Source of the DNA: Actinomycetota bacterium
GTDB lineage: Bacteria; Actinomycetota; Acidimicrobiia; Acidimicrobiales; Ilumatobacteraceae
Length of the DNA: 64,000 nt
Assembly: GCA_039796935.1 (NCBI GenBank)
Contig: JBDKIV010000240.1
Coordinates: 14,376-78,375, forward strand
Direction: 5' to 3'
The position numbers and the translations under genes were made by a program. Of the stretch, positions 39,088-53,255 are shown piece by piece. The notes beneath the pieces are model-generated. The model was not told where the DNA came from. It did not search any database and saw nothing but the letters and a program-made list of their open reading frames with translations. How positions within the stretch are numbered: position 1 is the first letter of the stretch; every line of letters starts with the position of its first letter.

Positions 39088-39942
39088 ATGCCCCTGCACG
39101 CTCAGGCCATCGGTGAACCGATCGGCGCGATCGACGTCCACTGCGATCGACGCTGGGTCATGTCGTTCGCCGCCGGGATACCCGACGACAGCGCCCCGTT
39201 CTACGACACGGTTGGCCACCTCGCCGTCCACCCGCTGTTCCCGGTCGCCGCCGAGTGGCAGCTCGTCGTCATGAAGCGCACCGACCCGTCGGGCATGTCC
39301 GCCGACGAGCGGCGGCGAGGCATCCACGTCGCTCACGACCTCGCGATCGAACGGCCGGTCCGGCCCGACGAGACGATCAGCCTGACGGCGTCGTTGCTCG
39401 GCGTCGGCCGGCGTCGGTCGGGTGCGACGCAGGAGGTGTTGTTCGTCGCCCGGGACACCGCCGGCGACATCGTGTGGCGGAGCCGCTTCACGTCGCTCTT
39501 CCTCGGCGTCGAGCTCGTCGGCGAGCCCGCGACGCTCGAGATCGACTGGCCCGCCACCCCGCCTCGACCGGACACGAACGGACCCCTCGTCGCGACCGAG
39601 TCGACCGTTCGGCTCGTCGACGCACACGTCTATTCGGAATGCGCGCGCATCTGGAACCCGATCCACACCGACCGGGCGGCGGCGCGAGCGGCCGGGCTCA
39701 CCGATCCGATCCTGCACGGCACGGCGACGCTGGCGCGAGGCGTGTCGCTGGTGACGGCCGCCGCCGGGGTTCGACTCGACGCGGTCACCCGAGTCGACTG
39801 CCGCTTCGTCGGCCAGGTGGCGCTCGGCAGCACCATCACGGCACGGCTACTCGCCCGCGACGACCATCACCTGTGGTTCGACGTGCTGACGGCCGACGGC
39901 GCGACGGCCATCGGCGACGGCCTCGTCTCGATCAACGCGTGA
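39088..39942 (+). CDS. MaoC-like (R)-hydratase/dehydratase, double hot-dog
   Basis: ATG 39088. The C-terminal half has YSECARIWNPIHTDRAAARAAGLTDPILHGTAT, a MaoC dehydratase motif. Confidence 0.65.
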   Translation: MPLHAQAIGEPIGAIDVHCDRRWVMSFAAGIPDDSAPFYDTVGHLAVHPLFPVAAEWQLVVMKRTDPSGMSADERRRGIHVAHDLAIERPVRPDETISLTASLLGVGRRRSGATQEVLFVARDTAGDIVWRSRFTSLFLGVELVGEPATLEIDWPATPPRPDTNGPLVATESTVRLVDAHVYSECARIWNPIHTDRAAARAAGLTDPILHGTATLARGVSLVTAAAGVRLDAVTRVDCRFVGQVALGSTITARLLARDDHHLWFDVLTADGATAIGDGLVSINA

Positions 39943-40555
39943 ACCGCGGCTTGAGGAAGCGCTTCCAGACGAACAGGGCGACGAGCGCGACGATCACGAT
40001 GATGACGACCGCCTGGAGCAGCCCGACCACGTTGCCCACCTGATCCCATCGGTCGCCCAGCACGGCGCCGGCGGCGATGAGCGCGATGTTCCAGATGGCG
40101 CTGCCGATCGCCGTGAGCACGGTGAACCGCACGAACGGCATCCGCCGGAACCCGGCCGGCACCGACACGATCGAGCGGATCAGCGGCACGCACCGGCCGA
40201 TCAACACCGCCGCATCGGAGCGGCGGTCGAACCACTCCTCGGCCCGGACCAGATCGGGCTCTTTGATGCCGAACCACCGACCCGAGCGGACCACGAAGCC
40301 GTGCAGCCGCTCGGGGCCGATCGCCGCCGAGATGCCGTACAGGATCCAGGCACCGACGACCGAGCCGATCGTCGCGGCGACGATCATGCCGATCAGCGAT
40401 GCATCGCCCCGTCCCGCCACGAAACCGGCGAGGGGAAGGATCACCTCGGACGGGATCGGGGGGAACAGATTCTCGACGGCGACGAGGAGCGCGACGCCGA
40501 CATAGCCGACGGTCTCGACGACATCGGTGACGAAGGTGGTGAGGTCGCCGAACAT
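39932..40555 (-). CDS. DedA family membrane protein
   Basis: VENLFPPIPSEVILPLAGF and RCVPLIRSIVSVPAG are canonical DedA/SNARE-associated motifs. Confidence 0.85.
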   Translation of the reverse strand: MFGDLTTFVTDVVETVGYVGVALLVAVENLFPPIPSEVILPLAGFVAGRGDASLIGMIVAATIGSVVGAWILYGISAAIGPERLHGFVVRSGRWFGIKEPDLVRAEEWFDRRSDAAVLIGRCVPLIRSIVSVPAGFRRMPFVRFTVLTAIGSAIWNIALIAAGAVLGDRWDQVGNVVGLLQAVVIIVIVALVALFVWKRFLKPRFTR

Positions 40556-40578: not shown

Positions 40579-42819
40579 CTACTGCTTGCCCATCTCGGAC
40601 CGCTGCTCGGTGGATGCGTCGGGGCCGACGGCGCGACCGAGCAACTCGATGTCGACGTGGTGCAGGACCCCTGCGAAGGAGAACGGCGACTCGTAACTCG
40701 TGCCGACGGGAGCACCGGCGTCACACCCGACGCTCAGGCCGTTGAACGGCATGAACCCGCGGATGACACGAGGGATCTCGACCGAACCCACGGGTCGACC
40801 GTCGACACCGAGCTCGCCGCGCGCCGACACCCGATCGAGCATCGTCAGGGTGAAGGTGACGTCGTGGTCACCCGGGTCGAGCGGCGTCTCGGCGCGGACC
40901 TCGTGACGCTCCATCGGGAAGTGGTAGTGGAAACATGCCCGACCGTCCTGGACGAACATCGCGTACCCGCCCCACCGGTCGCCCTCGGCGACCAGCACGC
41001 CATCGGTGGCACCCTCGCCGACGGTGATGCGGGCGTCGATCCGGAAGCCGGTGTTGACCAGCCGTGGACCGGCGTCGGACGGCAGCCGGACCAGACCGGG
41101 CCACAGCCGCCACGTGCGGCGGACCGGCCGGCGACGGCGACTCCCGGCGCCACCCCGATCGTCGATCGGCAGCACCTGGTAGCGCTCGGCCTCGTCCCAC
41201 CAGCGCTCGACCAACGCCTCGAGCACCTCGGGGTGCTGGCCGGCGAGATCGTGGCTCTCCGAGAAGTCCTCGTCGAGGTGGTACAGCTCCCACACGTCCT
41301 CGTCGAGCGGGCGTCGGGCGTCGTGCATGGTGACGGCCTTCCATCCGCCGGCGACGATGCCGCGGTGGCCGAGCATCTCGAAGTGCTGCACCGACTTGCG
41401 GGTCGGTGCGTCGGGCTCGGCGAAGGTGTAGGCCATCGAGGTGCCGTGCATCGGCATCTGGGCCACGCCGTTCACCGCCGGGGGCAGCGACGCTGCTGCG
41501 ACGTCGAGCACGGTCGGGGCGAGATCGCTCACGTGGTGGAACTGCCGCCGCAGCCCACCCGCAGAGCCCTCGGGCAACCCGGCCGGCCAATGGACCACGA
41601 GCGGGTCGCGCACGCCTCCGCCATGAGTGTTCTGCTTGTAGAACTTGCACGGCGTGTTGCCCGCCATGGCCCACCCGAGCGGGTAGTTGTTGAACCACTG
41701 CGTCTCGCCGATCTGGTCGAGCAGACCGAGCGACTGCTCGAGCGTCATCGGGGCGCGTTCGAAGTACCGGCCCTGGTGGAGCGTGCCGAACGGGCTGCCT
41801 TCCTGCGACGCCCCGTTGTCGCTCATCACCACGAACACGGTGTTGTCGAGCCGACCGACTCGCTCGAGCGTGGCGACCAGCCGACCGATCTGGGTGTCGG
41901 TGTGGCTGAGCATCGCCGCGTACGCCGCCTGGAACCGCACGTACAACCGCTGTTCGTCGGCCGACAGCGACTCCCACTCGGGCACACCGGGGTTGCGCGG
42001 CGGCAACTCGGTCGACCCGGGGATGATCCCCATCGCCTTCTGGCGGGCGATGCGGTCGAGGCGGGTGGCGTCCCAACCCTTCCGGAAGCGCTCTTCGTAC
42101 GCGTCGATCATGTCCTTCGGCACGTGATGGGGCGAGTGTCCGGCACCGAAGGCGAGGTACAGGAAGAACGGCTTCTCGGGGGCGACCGAGGTCTGGTCCG
42201 AGACGAGACCGATCGCCCGGTCGACGAGATCGGTGGTGAGGTGATAGCCGGGTGTGTCGGGGGTGGGGATGTGGTGGTTGTCCTCGGTGAGGAACGGCTC
42301 CCAGTGGTTCATGGCCCCGTCCATGAACCCGTAGAACCGGTCGAAACCACGCTGTGTCGGCCACTGGTGGAACGGCCCCGACGGGCCCGTGTGATGCATC
42401 GGCGTGAGATGCCACTTGCCGACCGCCCAGCTGTTCCAGCCGCGTTCGCGAAGGATCTCGGGCAGCAACGCCGCCTCGCGCGAGATGGCCCCCCGGTAGC
42501 CGGGGTGGCCCATGTCCCAGTTGGCGAGCGTGCCCATGCCGACGGCGTGGTGGTTGCGGCCGGTGAGCAACGAGGCGCGCGTCGGCGAACAGAGCGAGGT
42601 CGTGTGGAAGTTGGTGTACCGCAGCCCGCCCGCAGCCAGCCGGTCGATGTTCGGCGTGTCGATCTCGGACCCGTAACACCCGAAGTCGGAGTAGCCGACG
42701 TCGTCGAAGACGCAGAACACCACGCTCGGTGTACCGGGAGGTGCCTCGAACTCGGCCGGCCACATCGGCTCGGCGCTCGACATGGTGACGCCGGGGCGGA
42801 CTCGCGCTGTATCGCTCAT
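40579..42819 (-). CDS. Arylsulfatase (type I, formylglycine-dependent) with C-terminal extension
   Basis: DDVGYSDFGCYG and SLCSPTRASLLTGRNHH (C-x-P-x-R formylglycine motif). Start at ATG 42819, or at 42783. Confidence 0.85.
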   Translation of the reverse strand: MSDTARVRPGVTMSSAEPMWPAEFEAPPGTPSVVFCVFDDVGYSDFGCYGSEIDTPNIDRLAAGGLRYTNFHTTSLCSPTRASLLTGRNHHAVGMGTLANWDMGHPGYRGAISREAALLPEILRERGWNSWAVGKWHLTPMHHTGPSGPFHQWPTQRGFDRFYGFMDGAMNHWEPFLTEDNHHIPTPDTPGYHLTTDLVDRAIGLVSDQTSVAPEKPFFLYLAFGAGHSPHHVPKDMIDAYEERFRKGWDATRLDRIARQKAMGIIPGSTELPPRNPGVPEWESLSADEQRLYVRFQAAYAAMLSHTDTQIGRLVATLERVGRLDNTVFVVMSDNGASQEGSPFGTLHQGRYFERAPMTLEQSLGLLDQIGETQWFNNYPLGWAMAGNTPCKFYKQNTHGGGVRDPLVVHWPAGLPEGSAGGLRRQFHHVSDLAPTVLDVAAASLPPAVNGVAQMPMHGTSMAYTFAEPDAPTRKSVQHFEMLGHRGIVAGGWKAVTMHDARRPLDEDVWELYHLDEDFSESHDLAGQHPEVLEALVERWWDEAERYQVLPIDDRGGAGSRRRRPVRRTWRLWPGLVRLPSDAGPRLVNTGFRIDARITVGEGATDGVLVAEGDRWGGYAMFVQDGRACFHYHFPMERHEVRAETPLDPGDHDVTFTLTMLDRVSARGELGVDGRPVGSVEIPRVIRGFMPFNGLSVGCDAGAPVGTSYESPFSFAGVLHHVDIELLGRAVGPDASTEQRSEMGKQ

Positions 42820-42849
42820 GGCCTGTTTGTAGCCGATGCGCGAACCCTC

Positions 42850-42896
42850 GTCGACCACGGTTCGCCCCGGTCGACGCGGGATCGGTACCGTCGACC
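42850..42896. promoter_or_regulatory. Three GTCGAC palindromes at an exact 20-bp period in the sulfatase/kinase divergent promoter region
   Basis: GTCGAC occurs at 42850, 42870 and 42890. The outer context GGTCGAC (42869-75) and GTCGACC (42890-96) forms a 7-bp inverted repeat. Confidence 0.3.
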
Positions 42897-42924
42897 CGTT
42901 CCGAGACGACAGACGGGGGATGCG

Positions 42925-44010
42925 ATGTCGACAACGCAGGACGTTCGCGGGGAGCCCGCACAGATCGACGGGCCGTGGATGACCGAGGTCCTCGAGGCGG
43001 CAGGCGTCGCCCGAGGTGCGACCGTCACCGCCGTCACGCTCGACGGTTTCATCGGCACGGGCCAGACGGGCCGCAACGCCCGTTTGTCGCTCACGTGGGA
43101 CCGGCCCGACGATCGACCGGGCACCGTGGTCGGCAAGTTCCCGTCGGCCGACCCGACGGCACGATTCGCCGCGTTCGAGAACGGCACGTACCTGACCGAG
43201 TGGTCGTTCTACGACCAACTCGCCGACACCCTCTCGATCAGGACCCCGGCCTGCTACGCAGCACGGTTCGACGCCGACGCCCGCGACTTCGTGTTGATCA
43301 TGGAGGACCTGGCCGGCTCGCGCCAGGGCGACCAGTTCCGCGGGCTCACGGTGGACGAGGCATCGCTGGCCATCGAGCAGGCCGTCGGCCTGCACGCCCC
43401 CCGGTGGGGAGATCCCACGATCGCCTCCTTCGGCAGCCACCGACCGAAGGGTGACGAGGCCGCCGCTGCCCTCGGGATGGTGTACGGCATGATGGTCGAG
43501 CCGTTCCTCGATCGACTCGGGGGCGGGCTCGACGACGACGTCATCGAGTTGACCAGGGCGCTCATCCCGTTCGCCGGGGCGTGGGCCAGTGGGACCGACA
43601 CACCGCGTACCGTGGTGCACCTCGACTACCGACCCGACAACTTCATGTTCGGCGCCACGCCGGATGCGCCGCCGCTCGCCGTCGTCGACTGGCAGACGTG
43701 CACCGACGGCAACGCCATGTGGGATCTCGCCTACATGATCGGTGGCGGCTTCGAGCCGGCGCACCGGGCGCAGGTGGAGCGCTCGCTGCTCGACGACTAC
43801 CGCGCCCGCATGTCGAGCGCCGGTGTCGACTACGACGCCGACACGATGTGGCGCGACTATCGCCACGCGTCGCTGTGGGGCGTGGTGATGACCGTGATCG
43901 CCACGATCCTCGCCGCCGAGACCGAGCGGGGCAACGAGATGCTCACGGTGATGGGCCAACGCCACGGCCGGCATGCACTCGACCTCGAGGCGCTGGAGTT
44001 GCTGGGCTGA
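42925..44010 (+). CDS. Small-molecule phosphotransferase, APH/choline-kinase/EcKL-like fold
   Basis: ATG 42925 preceded by GGGGGA. Catalytic loop HLDYRPDNFMF (HxDxxxxN) and metal-binding VVDWQ. LIMEDL hinge-like segment. Confidence 0.75.
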   Translation: MSTTQDVRGEPAQIDGPWMTEVLEAAGVARGATVTAVTLDGFIGTGQTGRNARLSLTWDRPDDRPGTVVGKFPSADPTARFAAFENGTYLTEWSFYDQLADTLSIRTPACYAARFDADARDFVLIMEDLAGSRQGDQFRGLTVDEASLAIEQAVGLHAPRWGDPTIASFGSHRPKGDEAAAALGMVYGMMVEPFLDRLGGGLDDDVIELTRALIPFAGAWASGTDTPRTVVHLDYRPDNFMFGATPDAPPLAVVDWQTCTDGNAMWDLAYMIGGGFEPAHRAQVERSLLDDYRARMSSAGVDYDADTMWRDYRHASLWGVVMTVIATILAAETERGNEMLTVMGQRHGRHALDLEALELLG

Positions 44011-44012
44011 CG

Positions 44013-45263
44013 ATGATGCACACCGCGACGCTGCGTGTCCGCCGGATGGTGGTGCTCGGCGCATTCGTCGCGGTGATCGCGACCGCCTGGCTCGCCTTCG
44101 GACACCGGGGCCAGCACGTCGCGCGCGGCCTGTTGTTCCCCGGCGCCGGACTGGTCGACGAGCGGCCGTTGCTCGCAGCGCTGTGCCTCGCTGCCACCGT
44201 CGTGGCAACGCTGGCCTGGCTGCGATGGGGCGCGGACTGGCTGGTGGCCACCGCCGCCGGGCTCTCGGTGGTGCTCTCGGCCCTCGCCGTACCGGTGGGC
44301 CAGCACGCGAGCGGACCGGTGCACGATTCGTGGCAGGCATCCGCTGCAGCCCACGAGTTCCCGCTCGTCCTGATCGTCGTCGCGGTCGTCGCCTGGCTCC
44401 GGGCGCTCACCCTCCGGGTCCCGCTGATCGCTGCCTGGGTGAGCGCACGGCACCGACGTCGTGCGGGTCTCGGTGACACCGGCCAGCTCCCTCCGGTCGA
44501 CCGGTCACGGACGGCCGCGGTACTCGCCCTCGTCGGTGGCGAACTGGCCGGTCGCGCTGCGGCAGTGGCGGCCGATCCCGAGGTCGTCGAACGGGCCCGC
44601 CGGGTCGGTCTGGTGGCCCGGTTCCGCACCGGCGGCGACCCGTTGCGACATGACCATGCCCACGCCCGCGCTGCGCTGGCACTGACGGGTCGCGCCGACC
44701 GGGAGACGCTCGATCGACTGATCGCCGACACCGATCGTCACCCGCTCGGCGTGGTGTGCAGCGAGCCGGGGTGGGTCCGCCCCCTCGACGCAACCCTCGT
44801 CGCACTGGCGGTGTCGCGAGCGGGGGTTCGCCCCACCAGGTGGACCAGCGCGCTCGAGCAGCAGTTCGCCCTCGACCGTGGGCACCGGCCGGCCTGGTGG
44901 TGGACACCCCTCGGCATCGGCGCCGGATCGATGCCGGCGTGGGAGCACGCCACCACGGCATGTCTGGCGCGCGCCGCAGGGTGGATCGATCACGATCGCG
45001 ACTGGGAGGCACTCCGCCGCACCGCCCTCGGGGCATCGGCGCGCGGCACCTCGGTGGCCGCCGACGAACGCCTCATCGCCGCAGCCCGGATCCTCGCCTC
45101 GCTCGCCGGTGACACCGAGGCCGGCCGCCTGTTGGCCCGGCCGACGGTGCGCCACGACCCACTGGCCGTGGCCATCGACCTCCTCGCACGACGTCTCGCC
45201 GACGACCCATCAGCGCTCGCTCCCCGTGGGCTCGCACCGACCGAACGGACCTTCACCGCATGA
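44013..45263 (+). CDS. Membrane protein; divergent, shortened paralog of the two downstream Ldi-like genes
   Basis: ATG 44013, 2 nt after the kinase stop. N-terminal TM module with GLLFPGAGL ... LAWLRWG resembles GLSLVFPGGGF ... LVLWWG of the paralogs. VVCSEPGW resembles FFPCEPGW. Confidence 0.6.
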   Translation: MMHTATLRVRRMVVLGAFVAVIATAWLAFGHRGQHVARGLLFPGAGLVDERPLLAALCLAATVVATLAWLRWGADWLVATAAGLSVVLSALAVPVGQHASGPVHDSWQASAAAHEFPLVLIVVAVVAWLRALTLRVPLIAAWVSARHRRRAGLGDTGQLPPVDRSRTAAVLALVGGELAGRAAAVAADPEVVERARRVGLVARFRTGGDPLRHDHAHARAALALTGRADRETLDRLIADTDRHPLGVVCSEPGWVRPLDATLVALAVSRAGVRPTRWTSALEQQFALDRGHRPAWWWTPLGIGAGSMPAWEHATTACLARAAGWIDHDRDWEALRRTALGASARGTSVAADERLIAAARILASLAGDTEAGRLLARPTVRHDPLAVAIDLLARRLADDPSALAPRGLAPTERTFTA

Positions 45264-45277
45264 GCATCACCGTATGA
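45260..45277 (+). other. Five-codon relay mini-ORF (MSITV) created by a 14-bp tandem duplication
   Basis: The ATG at 45260 overlaps the stop of 44013..45263 (ATGA). Its TGA (45275-77) overlaps the ATG (45274-76) of the next gene. Confidence 0.4.
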
Positions 45278-45287
45278 GCATCACCGC
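45260..45287 (+). repeat. 14-bp direct tandem duplication ATGAGCATCACCG(T/C)
   Basis: Units at 45260-45273 and 45274-45287 are 13/14 identical. The duplication copies the start codon and the first four codons of the downstream gene. Confidence 0.9.
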
Positions 45288-47271
45288 ACCTCCCCCGGCC
45301 GGGACCGACACCGTCGAGCCGCAGGCCATCCCGCTGCTGCCCGAGCGACCGAAGCGGATGGGTCCTGTCACCCGATGGCTCGTGCTCCGCAGCGTTGCGG
45401 TCTTCGTCGTCTGGCAGGCGATCGCGGCTTCGCTCGTCGTGTTCGGCGGTGACACCGCCCGCGCCGGCGGCCTGTCCCTCGTCGTACCGGGAGGCGGGTT
45501 CGTGTTCACCGCCAGCCCGGTGCTGTTCGCGCTCACCTGGGTGGCGATGTCGGTCGCCGTGGTCCTCTGGTGGGGCATGAGCCTCCACGTCGGCATTCCG
45601 GTGGTGTGGATGCTGAGCGCCGTGGGCAGCGCGCTGGTGGCGAACGGCCCGCGCCTCTGGGTCGAGCGCGGCACCACGTGGGGATGGGCGATCCCGGCGA
45701 GCTACCTGCTGGCCGTCGTGCTGGTCGGCGCACTCGTGTGGTCGTTCGAGGCCCGCTTCCGTCGCAAGCGAGCCGCGGTCCCCGAGCTCAACGAGTACCT
45801 CGCCTCGGCCCGGCTGCCCGAACCGTCCCGAGCGCTGCGGACCCCCGACGAGATGGATGCCGAACTGCTCCGCTGGAGCTACGAACTCGCCCTGCAGCCC
45901 ATCGACCGCTTCGACGGGTTCGAGTGGGGCGAACAGTTCCACGGCGGGACCGTGGTCCGTTACCAGTTGAACTACCTCGGCTGGGCGCTCGCCCCCTACG
46001 CGGTCAACTACGTGCCCAACGCGCCCGGCCAGATCGAGCTGGCGCTTCGCAACCTGGTCATCAAACAGACCGACCTCCGTGTCTGGCAGTACTGGCAGAC
46101 CCTCAACCGGCTCGGCAACTTCGACGGCAATCCCGATCCGCTGGTGCGCGACAACATCATGTTCTCGGGCTTCACGGGCGACCAGATCAACCTCTACGAG
46201 GCCGCGACCGGCTCGACCTACTTCGACCAACCAGGTTCGCTGACGTTCGTGTGGAAAGACGGCCGCACCTTCGCGTACGACCACCACAGCTGGATGGAGG
46301 CGGTGCGCAAGAACTTCGAGCAGAGCCGGTTGGGGTTCTTCCCGTGCGAGCCGGGGTGGGCCTTCGCGGCGTGCAACACCCTCGGCGCGCAGGCGCTGTA
46401 CGGGCACGACCGCCTGCACGGGACGTCGCTGTGGGCGTCGGTCGAACCCAGATGGCGCGAGACGCTCGAACGCGAGTACCTGATGCCGGACGGCAACTAC
46501 GCCAACATCCGGTCGACCCACACGGGGCTGTCGTGGGACACCGGCGAGACGCCGGGCGGCGAGTACTTCGCCACGGGGACCCACCAGTTCCGCGATGTCG
46601 CACCCGACCTGGCAGCACGCGGTCGAGCACTGAGCTTGCGTCACGCACCGCAGAAGCTGGCCAAGCTCCGGGCCCTCATCGCCGATGGTGTGCTGCAGAT
46701 GCAGCTGCCCGACGAGTGGGAGCGCAACCGCGCCCGGCGCAGCGCGGTGCCCGGCTGGACGAAGCTGATCGGCGGTGCCCGGGCGGTCGGCGACGAAGAA
46801 CTCGCCGTCGCGGCCCAGCGCGCCCACGACCGACAGTGCGCCACGGGTCAGCGGTGGCCCGAGCGGCCGCTGGCCGTCGGGGTCTCCAACCTCGCCCTGC
46901 ACCTGCTGGTTCGCTGGTCGACCCCGATCGACAATGCTGCGTTGAACATCCGCGGCTACGTGCCACCGGTCGGTCCGGTCCTGCACGACGCGCCCTGGCC
47001 GGCAGTGCTGGTGACGCTGGCCCGCTCGAGCGACGGTGTCACACTCGACCTCGTGCTCCGTCCCGGCCCGGAGGCCGATGCGCGACCGGTCGGTCTCGGC
47101 TTCACCGCCCTGCAGCCCGGCACGACGTATCGGCTCGCGGGGGACGGGTTCGACGTCGAGTTCGTCGCCGACGGCGACGGGCACGGGTCGATCGACGTCA
47201 CCGTCGGGGCCACCCTGGCCCTGCGACTCGAGCCGGTCACGGCCGACACGGCGGACCGGGTGCTGTCATGA
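45274..47271 (+). CDS. Membrane-anchored protein with linalool dehydratase/isomerase (Ldi)-like domain, paralog A
   Basis: 665 aa. An N-terminal 4-TM module is followed by a soluble domain with RVWQYW, DNIMFSGF, FFPCEPGWAFAACN (C-x8-C) and GHDRLHGT, which align with my recollection of Ldi. Strong GC3 bias. Confidence 0.7.
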   Translation: MSITAPPPAGTDTVEPQAIPLLPERPKRMGPVTRWLVLRSVAVFVVWQAIAASLVVFGGDTARAGGLSLVVPGGGFVFTASPVLFALTWVAMSVAVVLWWGMSLHVGIPVVWMLSAVGSALVANGPRLWVERGTTWGWAIPASYLLAVVLVGALVWSFEARFRRKRAAVPELNEYLASARLPEPSRALRTPDEMDAELLRWSYELALQPIDRFDGFEWGEQFHGGTVVRYQLNYLGWALAPYAVNYVPNAPGQIELALRNLVIKQTDLRVWQYWQTLNRLGNFDGNPDPLVRDNIMFSGFTGDQINLYEAATGSTYFDQPGSLTFVWKDGRTFAYDHHSWMEAVRKNFEQSRLGFFPCEPGWAFAACNTLGAQALYGHDRLHGTSLWASVEPRWRETLEREYLMPDGNYANIRSTHTGLSWDTGETPGGEYFATGTHQFRDVAPDLAARGRALSLRHAPQKLAKLRALIADGVLQMQLPDEWERNRARRSAVPGWTKLIGGARAVGDEELAVAAQRAHDRQCATGQRWPERPLAVGVSNLALHLLVRWSTPIDNAALNIRGYVPPVGPVLHDAPWPAVLVTLARSSDGVTLDLVLRPGPEADARPVGLGFTALQPGTTYRLAGDGFDVEFVADGDGHGSIDVTVGATLALRLEPVTADTADRVLS

Positions 47272-47408
47272 TCTCGATGTACCTCAACTGCGCACAGGTG
47301 TGGGTCCGTCTCGTACGGCTCTGGTGCCGGCTCACCCGCCGGCCTCAGGTGACCTACGAGGCCCCGCCGCTCGCCCATGCCCGACCATCCGGTGGAGACC
47401 GCTCGTGA
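47268..47408 (+). CDS. Conserved micro-ORF (46 aa) coupled to both flanking genes
   Basis: MISMYLNCAQVWVRLVRLWCRLTRRPQVTYEAPP... Its ATG overlaps the upstream stop (ATGA) and its TGA overlaps the downstream GTG (GTGA). It is homologous to the micro-ORF at 49330..49428. Confidence 0.45.
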   Translation: MISMYLNCAQVWVRLVRLWCRLTRRPQVTYEAPPLAHARPSGGDRS

Positions 47409-49330
47409 CCGATCTGCTCCTGCTCCCTGAACGACCGAAGCGTTTCGGCCCGGTCACGCGCCGGTTGCTCGGCCGCTTCGTCGCCGTGATGCTGATGGTC
47501 GAGATCGTCGGCGCCGCGCTCGTGTTCGTGGCCGACGATCCGGTCGCCCGGGCGGCCGGTCTGTCCCTCGTGTTCCCGGGCGGCGGGTTCCTCTACGCCG
47601 CGTCGCCGGTGCTGTTCGTCGCCACGCAGGTCCTGGTGGTCGTGGCGCTCGTGCTGTGGTGGGGTCTCAGCACCCACTTCTCGATCCCCGCCGTCTGGGC
47701 GCTCGGCGTGATCGGTTCGGTGCTGCTCGCCGACGGGCCCAGGGTCTGGGTCGATCGCGGGACGCACTGGGACTGGGCGGTGCCGGTCGTGTACGCCGCA
47801 GCGCTCGTCACGCTGGGTGTGATGGTCTGGAAGGTCGAGCGGCGCTTCCGCGCCAAACGCGCCCGCGTGCCCGAGATCAACAGCTATCTGCGCGACGCAG
47901 CCGTTCCCGATCGCGTGACCGAACTCCGAGCGCCCGACGCGATGGATGCCGAGTTGCTTCGCTGGTGCTACTCGTTCGCCGACCAACCCGACGACGGCCT
48001 GGCCGGACTCGACTGGGGCGAGCAGTTCCACGGCGGCACGCAGCTCCGCTATCAGCTCAACAGCGTCGCTTGGTCGATGGCGCTGTACGCCGCGAACTAT
48101 CTGCCCAATGCCCCGCGCCGGATCGAACAGGCGCTCGGACGGGTGGTCGCCAAGCACACCGACCCGCGTGTGTGGGGCTACTGGCGCACGCTCAACCTGC
48201 TCGGCAACTTCGACCCGAACCCCGACCCGATCCGCCGCGACAACATCATGTTCTCGGCGTTCCTCGGCGATGTGATCAACAGCTTCGAGGCCGCCACCGG
48301 CTCGAGCCGGTTCGACGAGGCAGGGTCGCTCACGTTCGTGTGGCGCGACGGGCGCACCTTCGCCTACGACCATCACTCGATCGTCGCGGCGGTGCGCGCC
48401 AACTACGACCGCAGCCGGCTCGGGTTCTTCCCGTGCGAGCCCGGTTGGTCGTTCACGGTGTGCAACGTGATGGGCGCCCAGGCGCTCCACGGCCACGACA
48501 CGCTGCACGGCACCGACGAGTGGGACCAGGTGCGTGAGCGCTGGCGGCAGACCCTCGACGAGGAGTACCTCACACCCGACGGCTCGTATGCCCACATCCG
48601 TTCCAACCACGTCGGCCTGTCGTGGGACACGGGCGAGGTGCCGGGCGGTCACTACTTCGCCAACGGCACCCACCGGTTCGTCGACATCCTCCCCGATCAC
48701 GCTCGCCGCGCGAAGGCACTCGACCTTCGCGGGGCCAGCGGCAAGATGGCGGCGCTGTCGTCGATGATCCGCGACGGACGGCTCGAACTCGAACTGCCCG
48801 AAGAGCCCGAACGCCACCGGACCCGCTCGAGCGCACTACTCCCGTGGAACAAGGTGATCGGCGGCGCGCGCATGGTCGGCGACGCAGCCCTCACCCGAGC
48901 GGCGGTCGAAGCGTCGGCCCGGCAGTGCGCCACGGGTGAGCGCTGGCCGGGACGTCCGCTCGCCGTGGGTGGTGCCGGCATCGGCTCGCACATGCTGCTG
49001 CGCTGGTCCGCCCCACTCGACCTGGCCGCGCTCAACATGCGCGGCTACCTGGCCCCGGTGGGTCCGGTCGTCGACGAGGCCGACGACCGGGTGCTCGTCA
49101 CGCTCGCCCGCTGCGATGACGGTGTTCGGCTCGACCTGATGCTCGAGCCGTACGGCGAAGCCGTGCACGACGCCGTGCTGGCCGTCAGCGGGTTGGCCCC
49201 GTCGACCACGGCTCGGATCCACGGCGACGGTATCGACCTGAGCGTCGTTGCAGCGCCCGACGGGTCGGCGCGTGTCGTCGTGCCGCTCGTCGACCGACCG
49301 GTGCGTCTCGTCGTGGAGGCAGCGTCGTGA
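47405..49330 (+). CDS. Membrane-anchored protein with Ldi-like domain, paralog B
   Basis: GTG 47405 (VTDLLLLPERPKRFGPVTR parallels PLLPERPKRMGPVTR of paralog A). Shares long identical blocks with paralog A (WGEQFHGGT, GSLTFVW.DGRTFAYDHHS, RLGFFPCEPGW, GLSWDTGE). Confidence 0.7.
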   Translation: MTDLLLLPERPKRFGPVTRRLLGRFVAVMLMVEIVGAALVFVADDPVARAAGLSLVFPGGGFLYAASPVLFVATQVLVVVALVLWWGLSTHFSIPAVWALGVIGSVLLADGPRVWVDRGTHWDWAVPVVYAAALVTLGVMVWKVERRFRAKRARVPEINSYLRDAAVPDRVTELRAPDAMDAELLRWCYSFADQPDDGLAGLDWGEQFHGGTQLRYQLNSVAWSMALYAANYLPNAPRRIEQALGRVVAKHTDPRVWGYWRTLNLLGNFDPNPDPIRRDNIMFSAFLGDVINSFEAATGSSRFDEAGSLTFVWRDGRTFAYDHHSIVAAVRANYDRSRLGFFPCEPGWSFTVCNVMGAQALHGHDTLHGTDEWDQVRERWRQTLDEEYLTPDGSYAHIRSNHVGLSWDTGEVPGGHYFANGTHRFVDILPDHARRAKALDLRGASGKMAALSSMIRDGRLELELPEEPERHRTRSSALLPWNKVIGGARMVGDAALTRAAVEASARQCATGERWPGRPLAVGGAGIGSHMLLRWSAPLDLAALNMRGYLAPVGPVVDEADDRVLVTLARCDDGVRLDLMLEPYGEAVHDAVLAVSGLAPSTTARIHGDGIDLSVVAAPDGSARVVVPLVDRPVRLVVEAAS

Positions 49331-49428
49331 TGCTCGACTGCGACCGCCTGTGGACGCGTCTGGTGACACTCGTCTACCGGATCCGCCGCCGGCCTCGGGT
49401 GACTACGCCGCCGCAGCGACGGGGATGA
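49330..49428 (+). CDS. Conserved micro-ORF (32 aa) after paralog B
   Basis: MLDCDRLWTRLVTLVYRIRRRPRVTTPPQRRG. The ATG shares 1 nt with the upstream TGA. It aligns with 47268..47408 (L-[ND]-C-x2-[VL]-W-x-R-L-V-x-L-x2-R-[LI]-x-R-R-P-x-V-T), with synonymous differences at conserved residues. Confidence 0.4.
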   Translation: MLDCDRLWTRLVTLVYRIRRRPRVTTPPQRRG

Positions 49429-50749
49429 CGAGTCGGAACGTGGCGCCGCCGGCGTCGTGTTCGACGAGTTCGATCGTTCCGCCGCAGCGTTCGAGGAGCA
49501 GGTGGACGGTCGGCAGACCGAGCCCTCGACCCTCGCCCTTGGTCGACGAGAACGGCGTGAAGACGTCGCGGGCCAGCTCGGCCGGGACACCCGGGCCGTC
49601 GTCGCTGACCAGGACTTCGACCGCCGGACGACCGGACTGCACGGTGCTCGACAGCTTCACCCGGATCGAGCCGTGACCCTGCTGGGCATCCCCGGCGTTC
49701 GACACCAGATTGAGCATCACCTGCAGCAGATCGCCCTCGGACAACTCGACGACGGTGTGCTCGTCGACGTCGAGGTGGAAGCGGAGGTCGACCCCGCGAC
49801 CGGCCACCGAACGCAGGAACCCCATCGAACCGGCCAGGGCCGGAACGATCACGCACGACCCGCCCTCTGCCCCGCGTGACCCGCTGCGCAGTCGCTGCAA
49901 ACGTGCCGTCATGGCGGCAGCGTTGTCGCACGCTTCGAGGATCCGCTCGACACCCTGACGAGCCGAGTCGGACAGCTCCTCGCTCTCGAGCAGGCTGCAC
50001 TGGAGCGAGATCATCGTGATGAGGTTGTTCATGTCGTGAGCGACACCCGACGCCAGCCGTCCGATGTACCCGAGCCGCTCCTGCCGTTCGGCGAGCGCCC
50101 ACGCCTCTCGTTCGGCCGCTTGGGCTGCAGCACGCTCTCGATCGGTACGGATCACGTCGATCATGTGGGCACAGACCGCCAGGAACGGCTCGAGGAACTC
50201 GATGTCGTGCTCGTCGAACCCTCCCGGGCGGTTGGCGACCCCGATCATGCCGATCAGCACGTCGTTGCGACGAAGCGGCAAGCCGAGGAAGCTCACGAGC
50301 GGTGGGTGCCCGGGCGGAAGTCCACCACGACGCGGGTCGTGCGCCGGTTCGTTGCTGATGAGCGGCTCGCCCGAGGTGAGCACCCGACCGAACAACGTGT
50401 CGAGGTTCGAGAACACCAGCCCGCGGTCTTCGCCCTGGTTGTCGAGGTAGAGCTGCCGGGTGGCGTCGTCCCAGGCGATGTTGGTGAGCGCCCAGCTCTT
50501 CAGGTACGGCCGAGCGTCATCGGTGTAGAGCACCTCCCCGATGAAGCCGTACTCGCAGCCGGTGAGCCGCAGCACGTCGTCGAGGATCCGCTCGAACAGC
50601 TGCGGCCGATCGGCATCGCGGAAGTACAGCCGATGAGCACGTTCGATCGCGCCGAGGAGCTCGGACGCAGGTGACGTCGCTGTCTCCTCCACGACGGCCA
50701 ACTTAGTGCGTCCGACCTCGCTCGCGCGCGTGCTGGTCGCCGGCGGCAT
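49403..50749 (-). CDS. GAF-domain sensor histidine kinase
   Basis: GAF (CEYGFIGEV..FLGLPLRRNDVLIGMIGVANR), H-box ASGVAHDMNNLL, N-box LNLVSNAGDA, G1 DDGPGV, F FTPFSSTK, G2 GRGLGL. The start is uncertain (ATG 50749 used). Confidence 0.8.
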   Translation of the reverse strand: MPPATSTRASEVGRTKLAVVEETATSPASELLGAIERAHRLYFRDADRPQLFERILDDVLRLTGCEYGFIGEVLYTDDARPYLKSWALTNIAWDDATRQLYLDNQGEDRGLVFSNLDTLFGRVLTSGEPLISNEPAHDPRRGGLPPGHPPLVSFLGLPLRRNDVLIGMIGVANRPGGFDEHDIEFLEPFLAVCAHMIDVIRTDRERAAAQAAEREAWALAERQERLGYIGRLASGVAHDMNNLITMISLQCSLLESEELSDSARQGVERILEACDNAAAMTARLQRLRSGSRGAEGGSCVIVPALAGSMGFLRSVAGRGVDLRFHLDVDEHTVVELSEGDLLQVMLNLVSNAGDAQQGHGSIRVKLSSTVQSGRPAVEVLVSDDGPGVPAELARDVFTPFSSTKGEGRGLGLPTVHLLLERCGGTIELVEHDAGGATFRLVIPVAAAA

Positions 50750-51116
50750 GCGCCTCGGCCGGACGATCCGGCCGTGGCGCTGCCACGAGATTTGACGGTG
50801 CTGCGGGCGGGCACCACAGCACCGTCGATCTGCGAGCACGGGCGCTCATGCCGTGCTCACGCCCGCATGGTGTCGGGCAAGGCGGTGAGACCGCCGGCAG
50901 CCACGCTCTCGGGGCTCAAGCCCAGCGTGACTGCCGAGGCTGTTGGCGCACCACCCGCCGCGATCGCGAAGGCGCCGGCGTCCGCCGACCGGCGCAGCCA
51001 CCGCGCAGCGGGGGTTCGAGGTGGCTCGATCGGGCGGGGGTGCGTCACGGGTTGTAGAGAACCTGATCGTTCGTCGCTGCGAAACTCAGGAATCCATCAA
51101 TCTCCGGCGGGATGCT

Positions 51117-51144
51117 CCTCACTCTGGTGAGGGACATCCCTCAC
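51117..51144 (-). terminator. Two mutually exclusive GC-rich hairpins at the 3' end of the response regulator gene
   Basis: In plus-strand notation, CCTCAC-TCTG-GTGAGG lies at 51117-51132, or alternatively GTGAGGG-ACAT-CCCTCAC at 51127-51144. There is no U-tract. The third arm covers the stop codon at 51141-43. Confidence 0.3.
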
Positions 51145-51815
51145 GTGCGCGAGCCCGCCGCCCGCATGACCGCATGCACTCGGGGATTGACGCCGTCGTC
51201 GCCGGCATCGATGCCCAGCTTCGAGTAGATGGTGGTCAGCATCCGCTCGACGGTCTTCACCGACAGGTGCACGCGTTCGGCGATCGCTCGATTGCTGAGT
51301 CCGGCCGCCAGCGCTGCCAGGACCTGGCGCTCGCCGTCGCTCAGCGAGGCCACCTGTGCGTCGGTCCGCTCACCCAGACGATGCAGCTCGGGGTCGATCA
51401 TCACGAACCCCGACACCACCGCATCGATCGCCTGGCGCAGTCGACGACTCGTGTTCGTGCTCTTCAACAGGTACGCCCACGCCACGTCGAGTCGCTGGGG
51501 CAGCACCGCCACCAGATCCGGGCGGGCATCGCCGCTGAGGATGACGACGCCACGAGGACGGTCGCCGCCATGGCCACCGGCGACCACATCGGCTGCCACG
51601 TCGAGCCCTTCGCCGTCGGGAAGACCGAGGTCGACCACCAAGACGTCGACCGCGACACCGCGGAGTCCGCGTCGAGCCTCGTCGGCGGTACGGAACACGC
51701 CCGCCAGGCACAGGTCGTCCTGCTTCGACACCCACTCGCCCAGCAGGTCGGCGAGCAGATGTTCGTCTTCGACCACAGCGACGCGCACGACCTGACGGTC
51801 GACGTCGACGGTCAC
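51141..51815 (-). CDS. Response regulator, NarL/FixJ family (LuxR-type HTH)
   Basis: Receiver (VAVVEDEHLL, VLVVDLGLPDGEG, YLLKS) plus LuxR HTH (LSDGERQVLAALAAGLSNRAIAERVHLSVKTVERMLTTIYSKLG). GTGA overlap with the upstream gene. Confidence 0.85.
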   Translation of the reverse strand: MTVDVDRQVVRVAVVEDEHLLADLLGEWVSKQDDLCLAGVFRTADEARRGLRGVAVDVLVVDLGLPDGEGLDVAADVVAGGHGGDRPRGVVILSGDARPDLVAVLPQRLDVAWAYLLKSTNTSRRLRQAIDAVVSGFVMIDPELHRLGERTDAQVASLSDGERQVLAALAAGLSNRAIAERVHLSVKTVERMLTTIYSKLGIDAGDDGVNPRVHAVMRAAGSRT

Positions 51816-52822
51816 GCTGCGCCCTGCGACAACCGCTCGATGGACTGGACCAGCTCGAGTGCCCGGAACGGCTTGCGCAGCACGGTCGCATCGTCGGGAA
51901 GCCGCCGGGACAGGTCGGCACCGGCGTGCCCGGTGATGAACAGCACCGGCAGATCGGGCCGCCGCGAGCGCAGTTCCTCGGCCAGCGTGACACCGTCCAT
52001 CAACGGCATCGACAGATCGGTCACCAGGAACTCGAACGGCGTGCGATCGGCGACGTCGAGCGCCTCGACACCGTTCGATGCGACGTGCACGACGTATCCC
52101 CGGCGGCTCAGGATCTGCGCGACCGTGTCGAGCAGGGTGGGCTCGTCGTCGACCACCAGCACGATCGGGCGGTCGTCGGAACCGTCCATCGGCACGGTCG
52201 GGACCGTCGGCCGCAGTCGCTCTCCGGATCGTTCGAGCAGCTGAGCACCGAGGCGTGCGGCGCGGTCGAGCAGATCGCGCAGCGCCCCGGCATGCACGGT
52301 GTCGTCGGCCAGGTCGAGCTGCAGTTGCATCGCCGCCAGCAGATTGTTGAGCTCGTGCGCCGTCTCTGCGGCCACCCGGGCGACCGCCGTCTCGGCCGCG
52401 AGTTCGCGCTGCACGCGGTCGAGCTCTTCCTGTTCGGTCCGGTCGACGATCAGCCCGAGCATGGCGACGACCTCGCCATCGGGCCCCCGCAATGCCCGGG
52501 CGATCAACCGTCCCGGGAACGTCGAGCCGTCCGGCCGCATGTACTGCTTGTCGGTGACCATCTCGTCGAGCTCGCCGCTGGCGAGTCGGCCCAGGTAGTC
52601 GCGAGTCCGGTCACGGTCGTCCGGGTGGGTGATCGCAACCGCGCTCTGCTCGGGCAGGTCGGCCGGATCGAGGCCGAGCAGTTCGACGAACGCCTCGTTC
52701 GCGTCGAGTTGATTGCCGTCGACGTCGAGCAGCGAGAGCGCGACCGGAGCACGATCGAACGCCAGCCGACCCAGCAGCAGACGCGGCGTGTCATCGCTTC
52801 TCACTCCCGGCACGTTAGCCAC
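51812..52822 (-). CDS. PAS - HisKA(DHp) - receiver protein lacking a HATPase_c domain
   Basis: PAS (FDRAPVALSLLDVDGNQLDANEAF...KQYMRPDGSTF), H-box AAETAHELNNLLAAM, then directly a receiver (IVLVVDDEPTLL, FLVTDLSMPLMDG, VLRKPF). No N/G1/F/G2 boxes. Start uncertain (52804-52876); GC3 is weak upstream of about 52820. Confidence 0.7.
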   Translation of the reverse strand: MANVPGVRSDDTPRLLLGRLAFDRAPVALSLLDVDGNQLDANEAFVELLGLDPADLPEQSAVAITHPDDRDRTRDYLGRLASGELDEMVTDKQYMRPDGSTFPGRLIARALRGPDGEVVAMLGLIVDRTEQEELDRVQRELAAETAVARVAAETAHELNNLLAAMQLQLDLADDTVHAGALRDLLDRAARLGAQLLERSGERLRPTVPTVPMDGSDDRPIVLVVDDEPTLLDTVAQILSRRGYVVHVASNGVEALDVADRTPFEFLVTDLSMPLMDGVTLAEELRSRRPDLPVLFITGHAGADLSRRLPDDATVLRKPFRALELVQSIERLSQGAA

Positions 52823-52898
52823 ACGAGCCGACGGCGACGTCACAAACGGGTGACACCCATCCGTTGAAGCGTTCATCCACGCCCGACCGGAGGACCGC

Positions 52899-53255
52899 AT
52901 GAGCGACGACCACACCCCCATCGACGACGAGACCGCCCAGATGCTCGAGCACGTCTACGTGCGGGCAACGCGGATCGAACCGCAACTGCGCCGGTTCTCG
53001 CGGGTCCTCGCCGACCTCGGCCTACCCGTCCCGGCCGACTGGGCGTCGCAGGACGACCTGAGCACCGTGTCGTTCGCCGACCTCACCGTCACGCAGTTCG
53101 ACCGTCTCCTCTGCCTGTTCGAGGATCTCGCCGCCAACCGGCCCATCTCGGTCACCGTGGTGCGCGGCGGGCCGACCCTGTTCGATCCGGGTCCGCCCTC
53201 CGGGCCGGTCTCGCCGCCCTCGACGTCGAGCGTTCACATGGTGGTGCCGCGATGA
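52899..53255 (+). CDS. Hypothetical protein (118 aa), no family recognised
   Basis: ATG preceded by GGAGG. Strong GC3 bias. ATGA overlap with the next gene. Confidence 0.5.
   Translation: MSDDHTPIDDETAQMLEHVYVRATRIEPQLRRFSRVLADLGLPVPADWASQDDLSTVSFADLTVTQFDRLLCLFEDLAANRPISVTVVRGGPTLFDPGPPSGPVSPPSTSSVHMVVPR

Follow-up and report, generated by a model that had tools for sequence, protein, structure and literature searches.

An actinobacterial operon of Lis-type membrane enzymes, a kinase and micro-proteins suggests an undescribed route for rearranging and phosphorylating isoprenoid alcohols

Introduction

To our knowledge, the only members of the Ldi family that have been studied are the linalool dehydratase/isomerase Ldi (LinD) and the linalool isomerase Lis, both as monoterpene-catabolic curiosities and as alkene/alcohol biocatalysts. 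Here we describe a related locus in a 64,000-nucleotide (nt) stretch of DNA (hereafter the window; contig JBDKIV010000240.1 of assembly GCA_039796935.1, positions 14,376 to 78,375 of the forward strand) from an Actinomycetota metagenome-assembled genome (MAG) whose relatives are Acidimicrobiia/Ilumatobacteraceae. In an apparent operon at 42925-49428 of the window, two genes for Lis-type membrane enzymes, ldiA and ldiB, stand together with a kinase gene, a remodelled third paralog and two micro-ORFs.

Lis from Thauera linaloolentis 47Lol (ENO87364; 644 amino acids, aa) was enriched and assayed by Marmulla et al. (2016), and is a membrane-located protein with four transmembrane (TM) helices in its first 139 residues and a cytoplasmic Ldi-like domain (PMC4791888). 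It interconverts geraniol and linalool, with the direction from geraniol to linalool favoured thermodynamically, and its activity is membrane-bound and reductant-dependent (PMC4791888), the latter fitting the use of catalytic thiols. Expression of lis alone in E. coli placed the protein in the membrane in inactive form, from a construct whose cloning primer ended at the lis stop codon (PMC4791888). A 2018 review gave Lis as the only known relative of Ldi (PMC6013536). A literature search of open-access papers on actinobacterial Ldi-like systems and PF18566 returned no description of a cassette like the one reported here. The enzyme family and its membrane-anchored architecture are already known, while the kinase operon with its remodelled paralog and coupled micro-proteins, and a parallel DgkA-linked module in another phylum, appear to be undescribed. 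The operon suggests an undescribed route by which oily isoprenoid alcohols would be rearranged and phosphorylated at the membrane.

Results

Layout of the operon

Analysis of GC content by codon position (GC at third positions, GC3, in each frame) revealed unbroken + strand coding from 42925 to about 49430, bounded by a − strand gene on each side, in a region of about 70% GC. Six close-packed + strand open reading frames (ORFs) lie within 42925-49428, in the order kinase, ORF2, ldiA, micro-ORF A, ldiB and micro-ORF B, with 49428 the stop of micro-ORF B. Four of them (the kinase gene, ORF2, ldiA and ldiB) had been pointed out in a sequence-only reading of the window, made by a model from the letters and a list of ORFs; all four were present as it described them, and their coding status is backed by the GC3 frame analysis. 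That reading had spaced the genes by 0-2 nt, which is correct for the kinase gene and ORF2 (2 nt), but ORF2 and ldiA are separated by 10 nt, and the 133-nt interval between ldiA and ldiB is occupied by micro-ORF A, which overlaps each neighbour by 4 nt. The two gaps are followed by three 4-nt (or 1-nt) overlaps of the ATGA/GTGA type, and a single operon is the best explanation for the six ORFs.

Two Lis-type membrane enzymes

The products of ldiA (45274..47271, +; 665 aa) and ldiB (47405..49330, +; 641 aa) both matched the Pfam family Ldi (PF18566), with E-values of 2.4e-57 (195.3 bits) and 4.7e-54 (184.5 bits), respectively, against a cut-off of 26.1 bits. They are 60% identical over 623 residues (BLASTP), and all of the identical blocks listed at first reading were found in the pair (WGEQFHGGT, RYQLN, DNIMFS, GSLTFVW.DGRTFAYDHHS, RLGFFPCEPGW, GHD.LHGT and GLSWDTGE.PGG.YF). 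The public annotation of the same MAG has identical starts for the long genes, and its 665-aa (P0001, 100% identity) and 641-aa (P0082) proteins, named RI958_2487 for ldiA and RI958_2488 for ldiB, are both labelled 'hypothetical'.

The ldiA protein comprises a TM module (aa 31-167, nt 45364-45774), an (alpha/alpha)6 barrel (aa ~190-560) and a C-terminal beta-sandwich (aa 569-654). An AlphaFold2 (AF2) model with a mean predicted local distance difference test score (pLDDT) of 88.1 and a predicted TM-score (pTM) of 0.88 contains helices across residues 31-167, and the best 27 matches of this model in a Foldseek search of the PDB were all Ldi (E ~2e-8, TM-score 0.60-0.66), as expected if the soluble domain is an (alpha/alpha)6 barrel. 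Hydropathy analysis and the positive-inside rule gave four TM segments each in ldiA, ldiB and ORF2; the N-terminal four-TM module seen in the long proteins at first reading is borne out by these hydrophobic segments and their positive-inside flanks. Basic N-termini, together with a strongly basic stretch that follows TM4, would place the soluble domains of all three proteins in the cytoplasm.

Alignment of ldiA with Castellaniella defragrans Ldi (PDB 5G1U/7AD2) by phmmer (E about 3e-8) paired RVW(G)DW with RVWQYW, ENIMYKGH with DNIMFSGF, VCEPDNYFVQCNS with PCEPGWAFAACNT and YDRLHGT with GHDRLHGT, with C-x8-C spacing; the alignment given in the sequence-only reading, including the change of His to Phe, was reproduced in this way. 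The catalytic pair of Ldi, Cys171 and Cys180, corresponds to Cys358 (nt 46345-46347) and Cys367 (nt 46372-46374) in ldiA, while Met125, His129, Tyr66 and His58 correspond to Met296, Phe300, Tyr230 and His223. The PDB chain numbering is that of the literature, since the PDB mutants are named C171A, C180A, M125A and G107T. At the positions of the capping disulfide Cys49-Cys102, which closes the substrate channel of Ldi, ldiA has Asp214 and Asp267, a replacement that fits a cytoplasmic location. The His129 position is occupied by Phe in ldiB as well.

Family-wide features of the Lis-type enzymes

A profile of the window family matched 1029 clusters at 50% identity (E 1e-3 or better), and most full-length matches among these are 600-700 aa and align from about position 10 to 654; betaproteobacterial members of ~640 aa, Rhodocyclales included, matched the window-derived profile end to end. 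Among 104 diverse full-length members, the two catalytic Cys were present in 89 and 88, and the His129 position held F, Y or W in 90 and His in none. His129 is by this count Ldi-specific and not family-defining, and its replacement is no peculiarity of this locus. Residues that are invariant at 24-35% identity include Cys358, Glu359, Pro360, Cys367, Met296, Tyr230 and Pro72, the last in the PGGGF motif of the TM module; its family-wide invariance suggests that the module has a function beyond anchoring. On this sequence evidence, neither membrane anchoring nor the His-to-aromatic change is novel, both being the norm in the family. The view, expressed in the sequence-only reading, that only a soluble enzyme was known and that a membrane-anchored version was uncharacterised was mistaken, given Thauera Lis (PMC4791888) and the 600-700-aa architecture as the norm of the family.

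A remodelled third paralog

ORF2 (44013..45263, +; 416 aa) is predicted by hhalign, AF2 and Foldseek to combine a four-TM module with a compact Ldi-like alpha/alpha barrel. It had no Pfam or NCBIfam match at E 0.1 or better, PF18566 included, and the 173 or more members of its family, of about 400-440 aa, are all annotated 'hypothetical'. Its TM module carries the motifs PGAGL, WLRWG.DW and AAHEFPLV. Comparison with the Ldi-like profile by hhalign gave a probability of 94% and an E-value of 1.4e-7 over 298 columns, pairing the PGAGL of ORF2 with PGGGF of the TM module and (C)SEPGW with CEPGW. The AF2 model (pLDDT 84.5) again had only Ldi among its best 27 PDB matches in Foldseek (E 5e-4 to 5e-3, TM-score 0.45-0.49).

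The catalytic Cys positions are held in ORF2 by Ser250, at least 90% conserved, and by an invariant Asp259; His215 replaces a family-invariant Asn, and ten Arg are invariant in the ORF2 family alignment. By profile and model comparison, ORF2 is a remote third Ldi-like paralog with a pocket that appears remodelled, and not a decaying copy; since it lacks the catalytic Cys pair, it should not be filed as a Lis/Ldi enzyme. The 'triplicated' arrangement first proposed therefore stands as far as a remote third paralog is concerned, but full catalytic paralogs number two only, ORF2 being reduced and having both Cys replaced.

The kinase

The first gene of the operon (42925..44010, +; 361 aa) encodes a protein assigned to the APH/EcKL kinases by Pfam and by its motifs, and predicted to be soluble, with no TM segment. 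The assignment, made earlier by eye, is upheld by matches to APH (8.8e-12, 45.7 bits, cut-off 23.2) and EcKL (8.2e-8, 32.4 bits, cut-off 22). The protein contains a Gly-rich loop at 41-49, Lys71, the Brenner motif H232-x-D234-x4-N239 (H232-L-D234-YRPD-N239) and the Mg-binding D255-W-Q; with this complete set of catalytic motifs, it is predicted to be a competent small-molecule kinase. Its nearest solved relatives are weak matches, namely ACAD10/11-type kinase domains (E 8e-4 and 0.096) and choline kinase, the best PDB E-value of 8e-4 spanning 43 residues. No equivalog match was found in NCBIfam. Searches with the anti-phage defence models of PADLOC gave no match for the kinase, ORF2, ldiA or ldiB.

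Micro-proteins coupled to the long genes

Micro-ORF A (47268..47408, +) encodes 46 aa beginning MISMYLNCAQVWVRLVRLWCRLTRRPQVTYEAPPL, with a net charge of +5. Its start codon, ATG, shares the sequence ATGA with the ldiA stop, and its stop shares GTGA with the GTG start of ldiB. Micro-ORF B (49327/49330..49428, +) encodes 32-33 aa, (V)MLDCDRLWTRLVTLVYRIRRRPRVTTPPQRRG, with a net charge of +7, and starts at GTG 49327 or ATG 49330, overlapping the ldiB stop. Both peptides are strongly basic and amphipathic. The evidence for micro-ORF A consists of its sequence, its recurrence in related loci and its codon statistics, and that for micro-ORF B of its sequence and its recurrence after ldiB-type genes.

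A micro-ORF of 30-60 aa follows 81 of 96 actinobacterial Ldi-like gene ends, and in 76 of these 81 its start overlaps the preceding stop by 4 nt; many of the 15 gene ends without one are tblastn-extension artefacts or frameshifted assemblies (e.g. L031, L052, L046 and L061). The actinobacterial peptides have the core (N/D)C(A/D)x(V/I/L)W(T/V)RLV...R(R/K)P(Q/R)VT..PP and fall into two sequence types that follow ldiA and ldiB genes, respectively, Mycolicibacterium included. The ratio of nonsynonymous to synonymous differences (pN/pS) over 24 core codons in 252 sequence pairs was 0.33 in the micro-ORF frame, versus 1.22 and 2.12 in the other two frames. As judged from these statistics and overlaps, the micro-proteins are under purifying selection and translationally coupled to the long genes. 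They had no match in Pfam, NCBIfam or PADLOC, and in the public annotations of the related loci inspected the micro-ORFs were not called as genes.

Conservation of the cassette in Actinobacteria

A scan with one genome per species yielded 59 loci, nearly all from Acidimicrobiia, with the addition of Mycolicibacterium vinylchloridicum and M. pyrenivorans, and neighbours were counted over the 42 loci having at least 3.5 kb upstream. Of the 42, 34 have a kinase homologue upstream of the Ldi-like gene, with tight spacing or overlaps kept, and 38 have an ORF2 homologue. The canonical order kinase-ORF2-Ldi-like recurs in 30 loci of Acidimicrobiia and Mycolicibacterium, so the gene order noticed in the window is conserved in its relatives. 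Ldi-like genes form a tandem pair in 16 loci; where a single copy is present it is closest to the ldiB type, and ldiA occurs only where ldiB does. Three long contigs from other Acidimicrobiales carry an APH/EcKL kinase, a 417-439-aa protein and one or two Ldi-like genes between wholly different flanks. A sulfatase homologue was found in none of the 42 loci and the GAF-kinase gave a single weak match; the sulfatase, the GAF histidine kinase and DedA, encoded near the cassette in the window, were ruled out as parts of the system, as they are not conserved beside it. The desulfation step that the sequence-only reading had built into its pathway is not upheld by this distribution.

The flanks of the cassette vary. 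TetR, SDR, P450 and MFS genes surround it in M. vinylchloridicum, and in one locus (L002) it is preceded by Rieske, ECH and acyl-CoA ligase genes. TetR-like ORFs adjoin about 15 of 64 actinobacterial loci, which is suggestive and not general. No geraniol/geranial dehydrogenase or Atu-type genes were conserved beside the cassette in the loci inspected.

The paralogs show no sign of decay, with no frameshifts within the window. Fragmented matches in four related loci (L001, L031, L052 and L056) were considered as gene decay and rejected, as they look like assembly errors. L001 has the kinase, ORF2 and ldiB in fragments, and its ldiA-type protein is identical to that of L002; since L001 and L002 (GCA_041394205.1 and GCA_041394265.1) carry identical P0045 and only L001 is split, assembly indels are the most likely cause.

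A third actinobacterial Ldi-like subtype was also seen (L032, L035, L036, L041, L045, L048 and L062). It has no adjacent kinase, its micro-ORF is of the type MILNID(R/K)xWT(R/W)LV..., and an ORF2 homologue lies downstream or on the opposite strand; TetR-like ORFs occur near several of these loci.

A DgkA-linked module in another clade

The search was extended beyond Actinobacteria with a distant representative, P0351, of a betaproteobacterial clade (Uliginosibacterium, Massilia, Polaromonas and Rubrivivax). In all four betaproteobacterial loci inspected (L065 6001-8450, L066 6001-8446, L067 6001-8452 and L068 6001-8469) the Ldi-like gene is followed by an ORF of 43-46 aa and then by a DgkA-family gene (PF01219). 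The peptides consist of MACC, a TM helix and a basic patch, and end in ...AWRL in L066, L067 and L068 and in ...LRWQP in L065 (Uliginosibacterium); one of these micro-ORFs was called as a gene by the Joint Genome Institute (JGI). Comparison of the actinobacterial and proteobacterial micro-proteins revealed no demonstrable homology (hmmsearch E about 0.01 with a tiny database; hhalign probability 0.7%). They are alike in position, size and helix-plus-basic-patch design, and are treated as positional analogues.

Of 65 non-redundant loci from a metagenome scan (L069-L148), 40 have a same-strand DgkA-like gene, at a median distance of 132 nt downstream; this proportion applies to the sampled clade alone because the scan mainly covers the clade around P0290. 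A micro-ORF of the form MxCC...W(R/K)L was present in 35 of the 65 loci, and together with DgkA in 29. One locus without DgkA has an APH-family kinase upstream instead. The DgkA-like partner matches structures of E. coli DgkA (diacylglycerol kinase) with E 3e-9, and the DgkA family phosphorylates membrane lipid alcohols, undecaprenol included, B. subtilis DgkA acting on undecaprenol (PMC5723303). That kinases of two unrelated families have been recruited to one enzyme family argues for a shared pathway, and the independent DgkA association strengthens the link to phosphorylation proposed from the window itself.

Some loci in the scan are kinase-less and catabolic-looking (L143 2710-3963, L132 3055-3972, L119 3200-4387 and L120 3744-5021); in L143 and L132 an ORF of 118-127 aa without a Pfam match precedes the family member.

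Neighbouring genes in the window

A 105-bp divergent intergenic region (42820..42924, no strand), delimited by frame analysis and translations, separates the kinase gene (+) from a sulfatase gene (−) and is presumed to be the promoter region of the operon. A sigma-70 consensus scan of it found no match, a result that is uninformative at 70% GC in an actinobacterium, and promoter/terminator, Rfam and tRNA scans likewise gave no matches. The divergent gene encodes a formylglycine-type sulfatase (40579-42819, −), as first read, with the motif CSPTR and a match to Pfam Sulfatase at 1.1e-59. The ORFs 40657-44010 (+) and 40868-42961 (−) were ruled out as genes by codon-position GC, the sulfatase frame being the real one; one spurious ORF overlying the sulfatase gene, of 1117 aa, extends into the kinase frame.

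Just downstream of the sulfatase gene lies a gene for a DedA/VTT-domain membrane protein (39932-40555, −). DedA proteins have been implicated in undecaprenyl-phosphate recycling; in the loci inspected the gene is not conserved beside the cassette, and its nearness may be chance. At the other end, the 3' end of micro-ORF B (49403-49428) overlaps by 26 nt a convergent ORF for a GAF-HisKA-HATPase sensor kinase (49403-50839, −). Further on, a 433-aa ORF without a Pfam match (50943-52244, +) overlaps an ORF for a PAS/receiver protein (51812-52921, −). A gene for a UGSC-family (PF24696) protein (55521-56960, −) is located 6 kb downstream of the cassette, and a UGSC-family gene is directly upstream of the kinase in another Acidimicrobiales MAG (L004/L005, 5026-5553, +), perhaps by coincidence or through a loose association.

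Discussion

Proposed pathway

That the Lis-type enzymes and the kinase share one pathway acting on a lipophilic alcohol is, in our judgement, likely. The more complete proposal, which includes the order of the steps, is that a membrane isomerase/hydratase acts on allylic isoprenoid alcohols and that phosphorylation then traps the primary alcohol formed; we put this slightly short of an even chance. In this pathway, the substrate of the Lis-type enzymes would be a hydrophobic isoprenoid alcohol of the allylic kind, or its diene counterpart, taken up from the bilayer. By thiol-based acid/base chemistry the enzymes would convert tertiary (linalool-type) and primary (geraniol-type) allylic alcohols into one another, or add water to the diene. 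The kinase would phosphorylate the primary alcohol to a prenyl or polyprenyl phosphate, and would thereby pull an equilibrium that by itself lies on the side of the tertiary alcohol. To run toward the primary alcohol, the reaction requires a step that consumes the product, because conversion of geraniol to linalool is the favoured reaction; this step is oxidation in Thauera and would be ATP-dependent phosphorylation here.

The micro-proteins, and possibly ORF2, may be subunits of a membrane complex, with the micro-proteins bound to the conserved TM module. The active site of Ldi sits between the subunits of a pentamer (PMC6013536), which makes a hetero-oligomer of the paralogs plausible, and the inactivity of lis expressed alone fits a missing micro-protein subunit. 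The physiological role could be to return isoprenoid alcohols, such as polyprenol carriers, farnesol, geranylgeraniol or phytol, to phosphate pools by salvage or repair, or it could be an inducible handling of exogenous terpenoid alcohols. Under salvage, the starting compounds would be exogenous prenols or tertiary allylic isomers, the latter arising for example when allylic prenyl (di)phosphates undergo solvolysis; they would be converted to the primary alcohol and re-phosphorylated, and the resulting prenyl or polyprenyl phosphate would feed carrier-lipid or isoprenoid pools. We regard a role in prenol or polyprenol salvage or repair as possible and rather doubtful. A similarly tentative extension is a widespread, cross-phylum module of three parts for isoprenoid-alcohol salvage or repair, in which a Lis-like enzyme would work with a micro-protein as its obligatory subunit and with a kinase for lipid alcohols. 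The kinase would be APH/EcKL, accompanied by the remodelled paralog, in Actinobacteria and DgkA in Proteobacteria.

Several points weigh against the proposed pathway. We infer the substrate here from a family whose biochemical data are limited to Ldi and Lis, and the order of isomerase before kinase solely from thermodynamics. The structures weakly similar to the kinase give no clue to its likely substrate. With His129 and the Cys49-Cys102 disulfide absent, the chemistry of ldiA and ldiB may differ in detail from that of Ldi. Other clades of the family have no kinase and lie beside ECH/ChsH2-like, FAD or luciferase-like monooxygenase and SDR genes. The flanks in M. vinylchloridicum look more like xenobiotic handling than housekeeping and, with TetR near about a quarter of the loci, would fit an inducible handling of exogenous terpenoids. 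Free undecaprenol is reportedly absent in Gram-negatives (PMC5723303), which weakens the polyprenol version of the proposal for the DgkA-linked clade.

Alternative explanations

The kinase could act first, phosphorylating the alcohol so that the Ldi-like barrels, perhaps that of ORF2, expel phosphate to give an allylic cation and from it an alkene or isomeric alcohol, in a logic akin to that of terpene synthases or ACAD10/11. The ACAD10/11 pathway phosphorylates a hydroxyl ahead of elimination, and ACAD10/11-type domains are the best, though weak, PDB matches of the window kinase; ORF2 has ten Arg that are invariant, and His, Ser and Asp in its remodelled pocket, and the (alpha/alpha)6 barrel is also the class II terpene cyclase fold (PMC6013536). 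This order is nevertheless improbable, as Lis and Ldi use free alcohols without phosphate, the Cys pair of that free-alcohol chemistry is strictly kept in ldiA and ldiB, and DgkA-type kinases yield stable lipid phosphates and not activated intermediates.

The Lis-type enzymes could also be purely catabolic linalool or terpenoid isomerases, as in Thauera, with the kinase incidental or serving regulation or detoxification. The sole characterised membrane member, Lis, is catabolic, some clades stand beside the ECH/ChsH2-like, monooxygenase and SDR genes named above, and the M. vinylchloridicum (TetR, P450 and SDR) and L002 (Rieske, ECH and acyl-CoA ligase) flanks, with the TetR-like ORFs at other loci, would suit such a role. 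Yet the kinase stays close in 34 of 42 loci although the flanks change completely, 40 of 65 loci in another clade pair the same enzyme with an unrelated kinase, and geraniol/geranial dehydrogenase or Atu-type genes are not conserved beside the cassette. We consider the purely catabolic account unlikely.

A non-isoprenoid membrane lipid as substrate, diacylglycerol-related or an unsaturated fatty alcohol, which would be hydrated or rearranged with the DgkA link reflecting diacylglycerol recycling, has a small probability in our view. It draws on the match of the DgkA-like partner to diacylglycerol kinase structures and on the reported lack of free undecaprenol in Gram-negatives, but the known chemistry of the family is confined to allylic alcohols of the 3-methyl-allyl type, a group that diacylglycerol does not have, and the DgkA family contains proven undecaprenol kinases.

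A further alternative is that the micro-ORFs are translational-coupling or arrest leaders tuning downstream expression, and not subunits. Pro-rich stretches can slow ribosomes, the actinobacterial peptides end Pro-rich (APP, PPP), and ldiA is coupled to ldiB through the 4-nt overlaps on either side of micro-ORF A. We nevertheless consider this very unlikely: micro-ORF B closes the operon, leaving nothing downstream for it to tune; purifying selection acts on the peptide sequence over 24 codons; and in the proteobacterial counterparts, one of which JGI called as a gene, the TM helix is clear and a Pro run is absent.

Significance

The Ldi family is large and is genetically tied in two phyla to kinases acting on hydrophobic alcohols. 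If the isomerase-then-kinase pathway is correct, bacteria would possess an ATP-driven conversion of tertiary or free isoprenoid alcohols to prenyl phosphates at the membrane, with bearing on carrier-lipid homeostasis, on the recycling of phytol- or farnesol-type lipids in aquatic Actinobacteria and on the engineering of alcohols into isoprenoids. The conserved micro-proteins offer a concrete and testable reason for the inactivity of recombinant Lis. Experiments are feasible, as the cassette is present in the cultured strains M. vinylchloridicum CECT 8761 and M. pyrenivorans DSM 44605.

Comparison with known systems

The window kinase shares Pfam membership and the HxDxxxxN and D-W-Q motifs with the APH/EcKL kinases (aminoglycoside phosphotransferase, ecdysteroid-kinase-like, the ACAD10/11 domain and choline kinase), among which no characterised member is close to it. 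DgkA (PF01219), which is not present in the window, fills the place of this kinase in the proteobacterial-type clade, in the same operon as the Ldi-like gene and the micro-ORF. The two are not homologous, DgkA being an integral membrane protein of about 130 aa and the window kinase a soluble protein of 361 aa with a protein-kinase-like fold.

The next fold match of ldiA after Ldi is the GH127 beta-L-arabinofuranosidase HypBA1 (PDB 3WKX, E 1.6e-4), in which an (alpha/alpha)6 barrel is likewise followed by a beta-sandwich and the active site is cysteine-based. Unlike ldiA, HypBA1 is a glycosidase with no TM module; the TM-score is ~0.22 and there is no sequence-level relationship.

Ldi from C. 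defragrans 65Phen (PDB 5G1U, 5HSS and 5I3T) has the (alpha/alpha)6 barrel in common with ldiA, and equivalents of its Cys171, Cys180, Met125, Tyr66 and His58, together with the RVW..W and DRLHGT motifs, are kept in the window proteins. Identity is ~15-18%, and the window proteins add the N-terminal four-TM module and the C-terminal beta-sandwich. Ldi carries a signal peptide and forms a soluble homopentamer in the periplasm (PMC6013536), whereas the window proteins are predicted to face the cytoplasm.

The published description of Lis agrees with the window proteins (665 and 641 aa) in length, TM count and predicted topology. Lis is described as the product of a stand-alone gene in a monoterpene-degrading denitrifier, and a kinase, paralogs and a micro-protein have not been reported for it; the window operon, unlike Lis, unites two catalytic paralogs with a remodelled third paralog, two micro-ORFs and a kinase.

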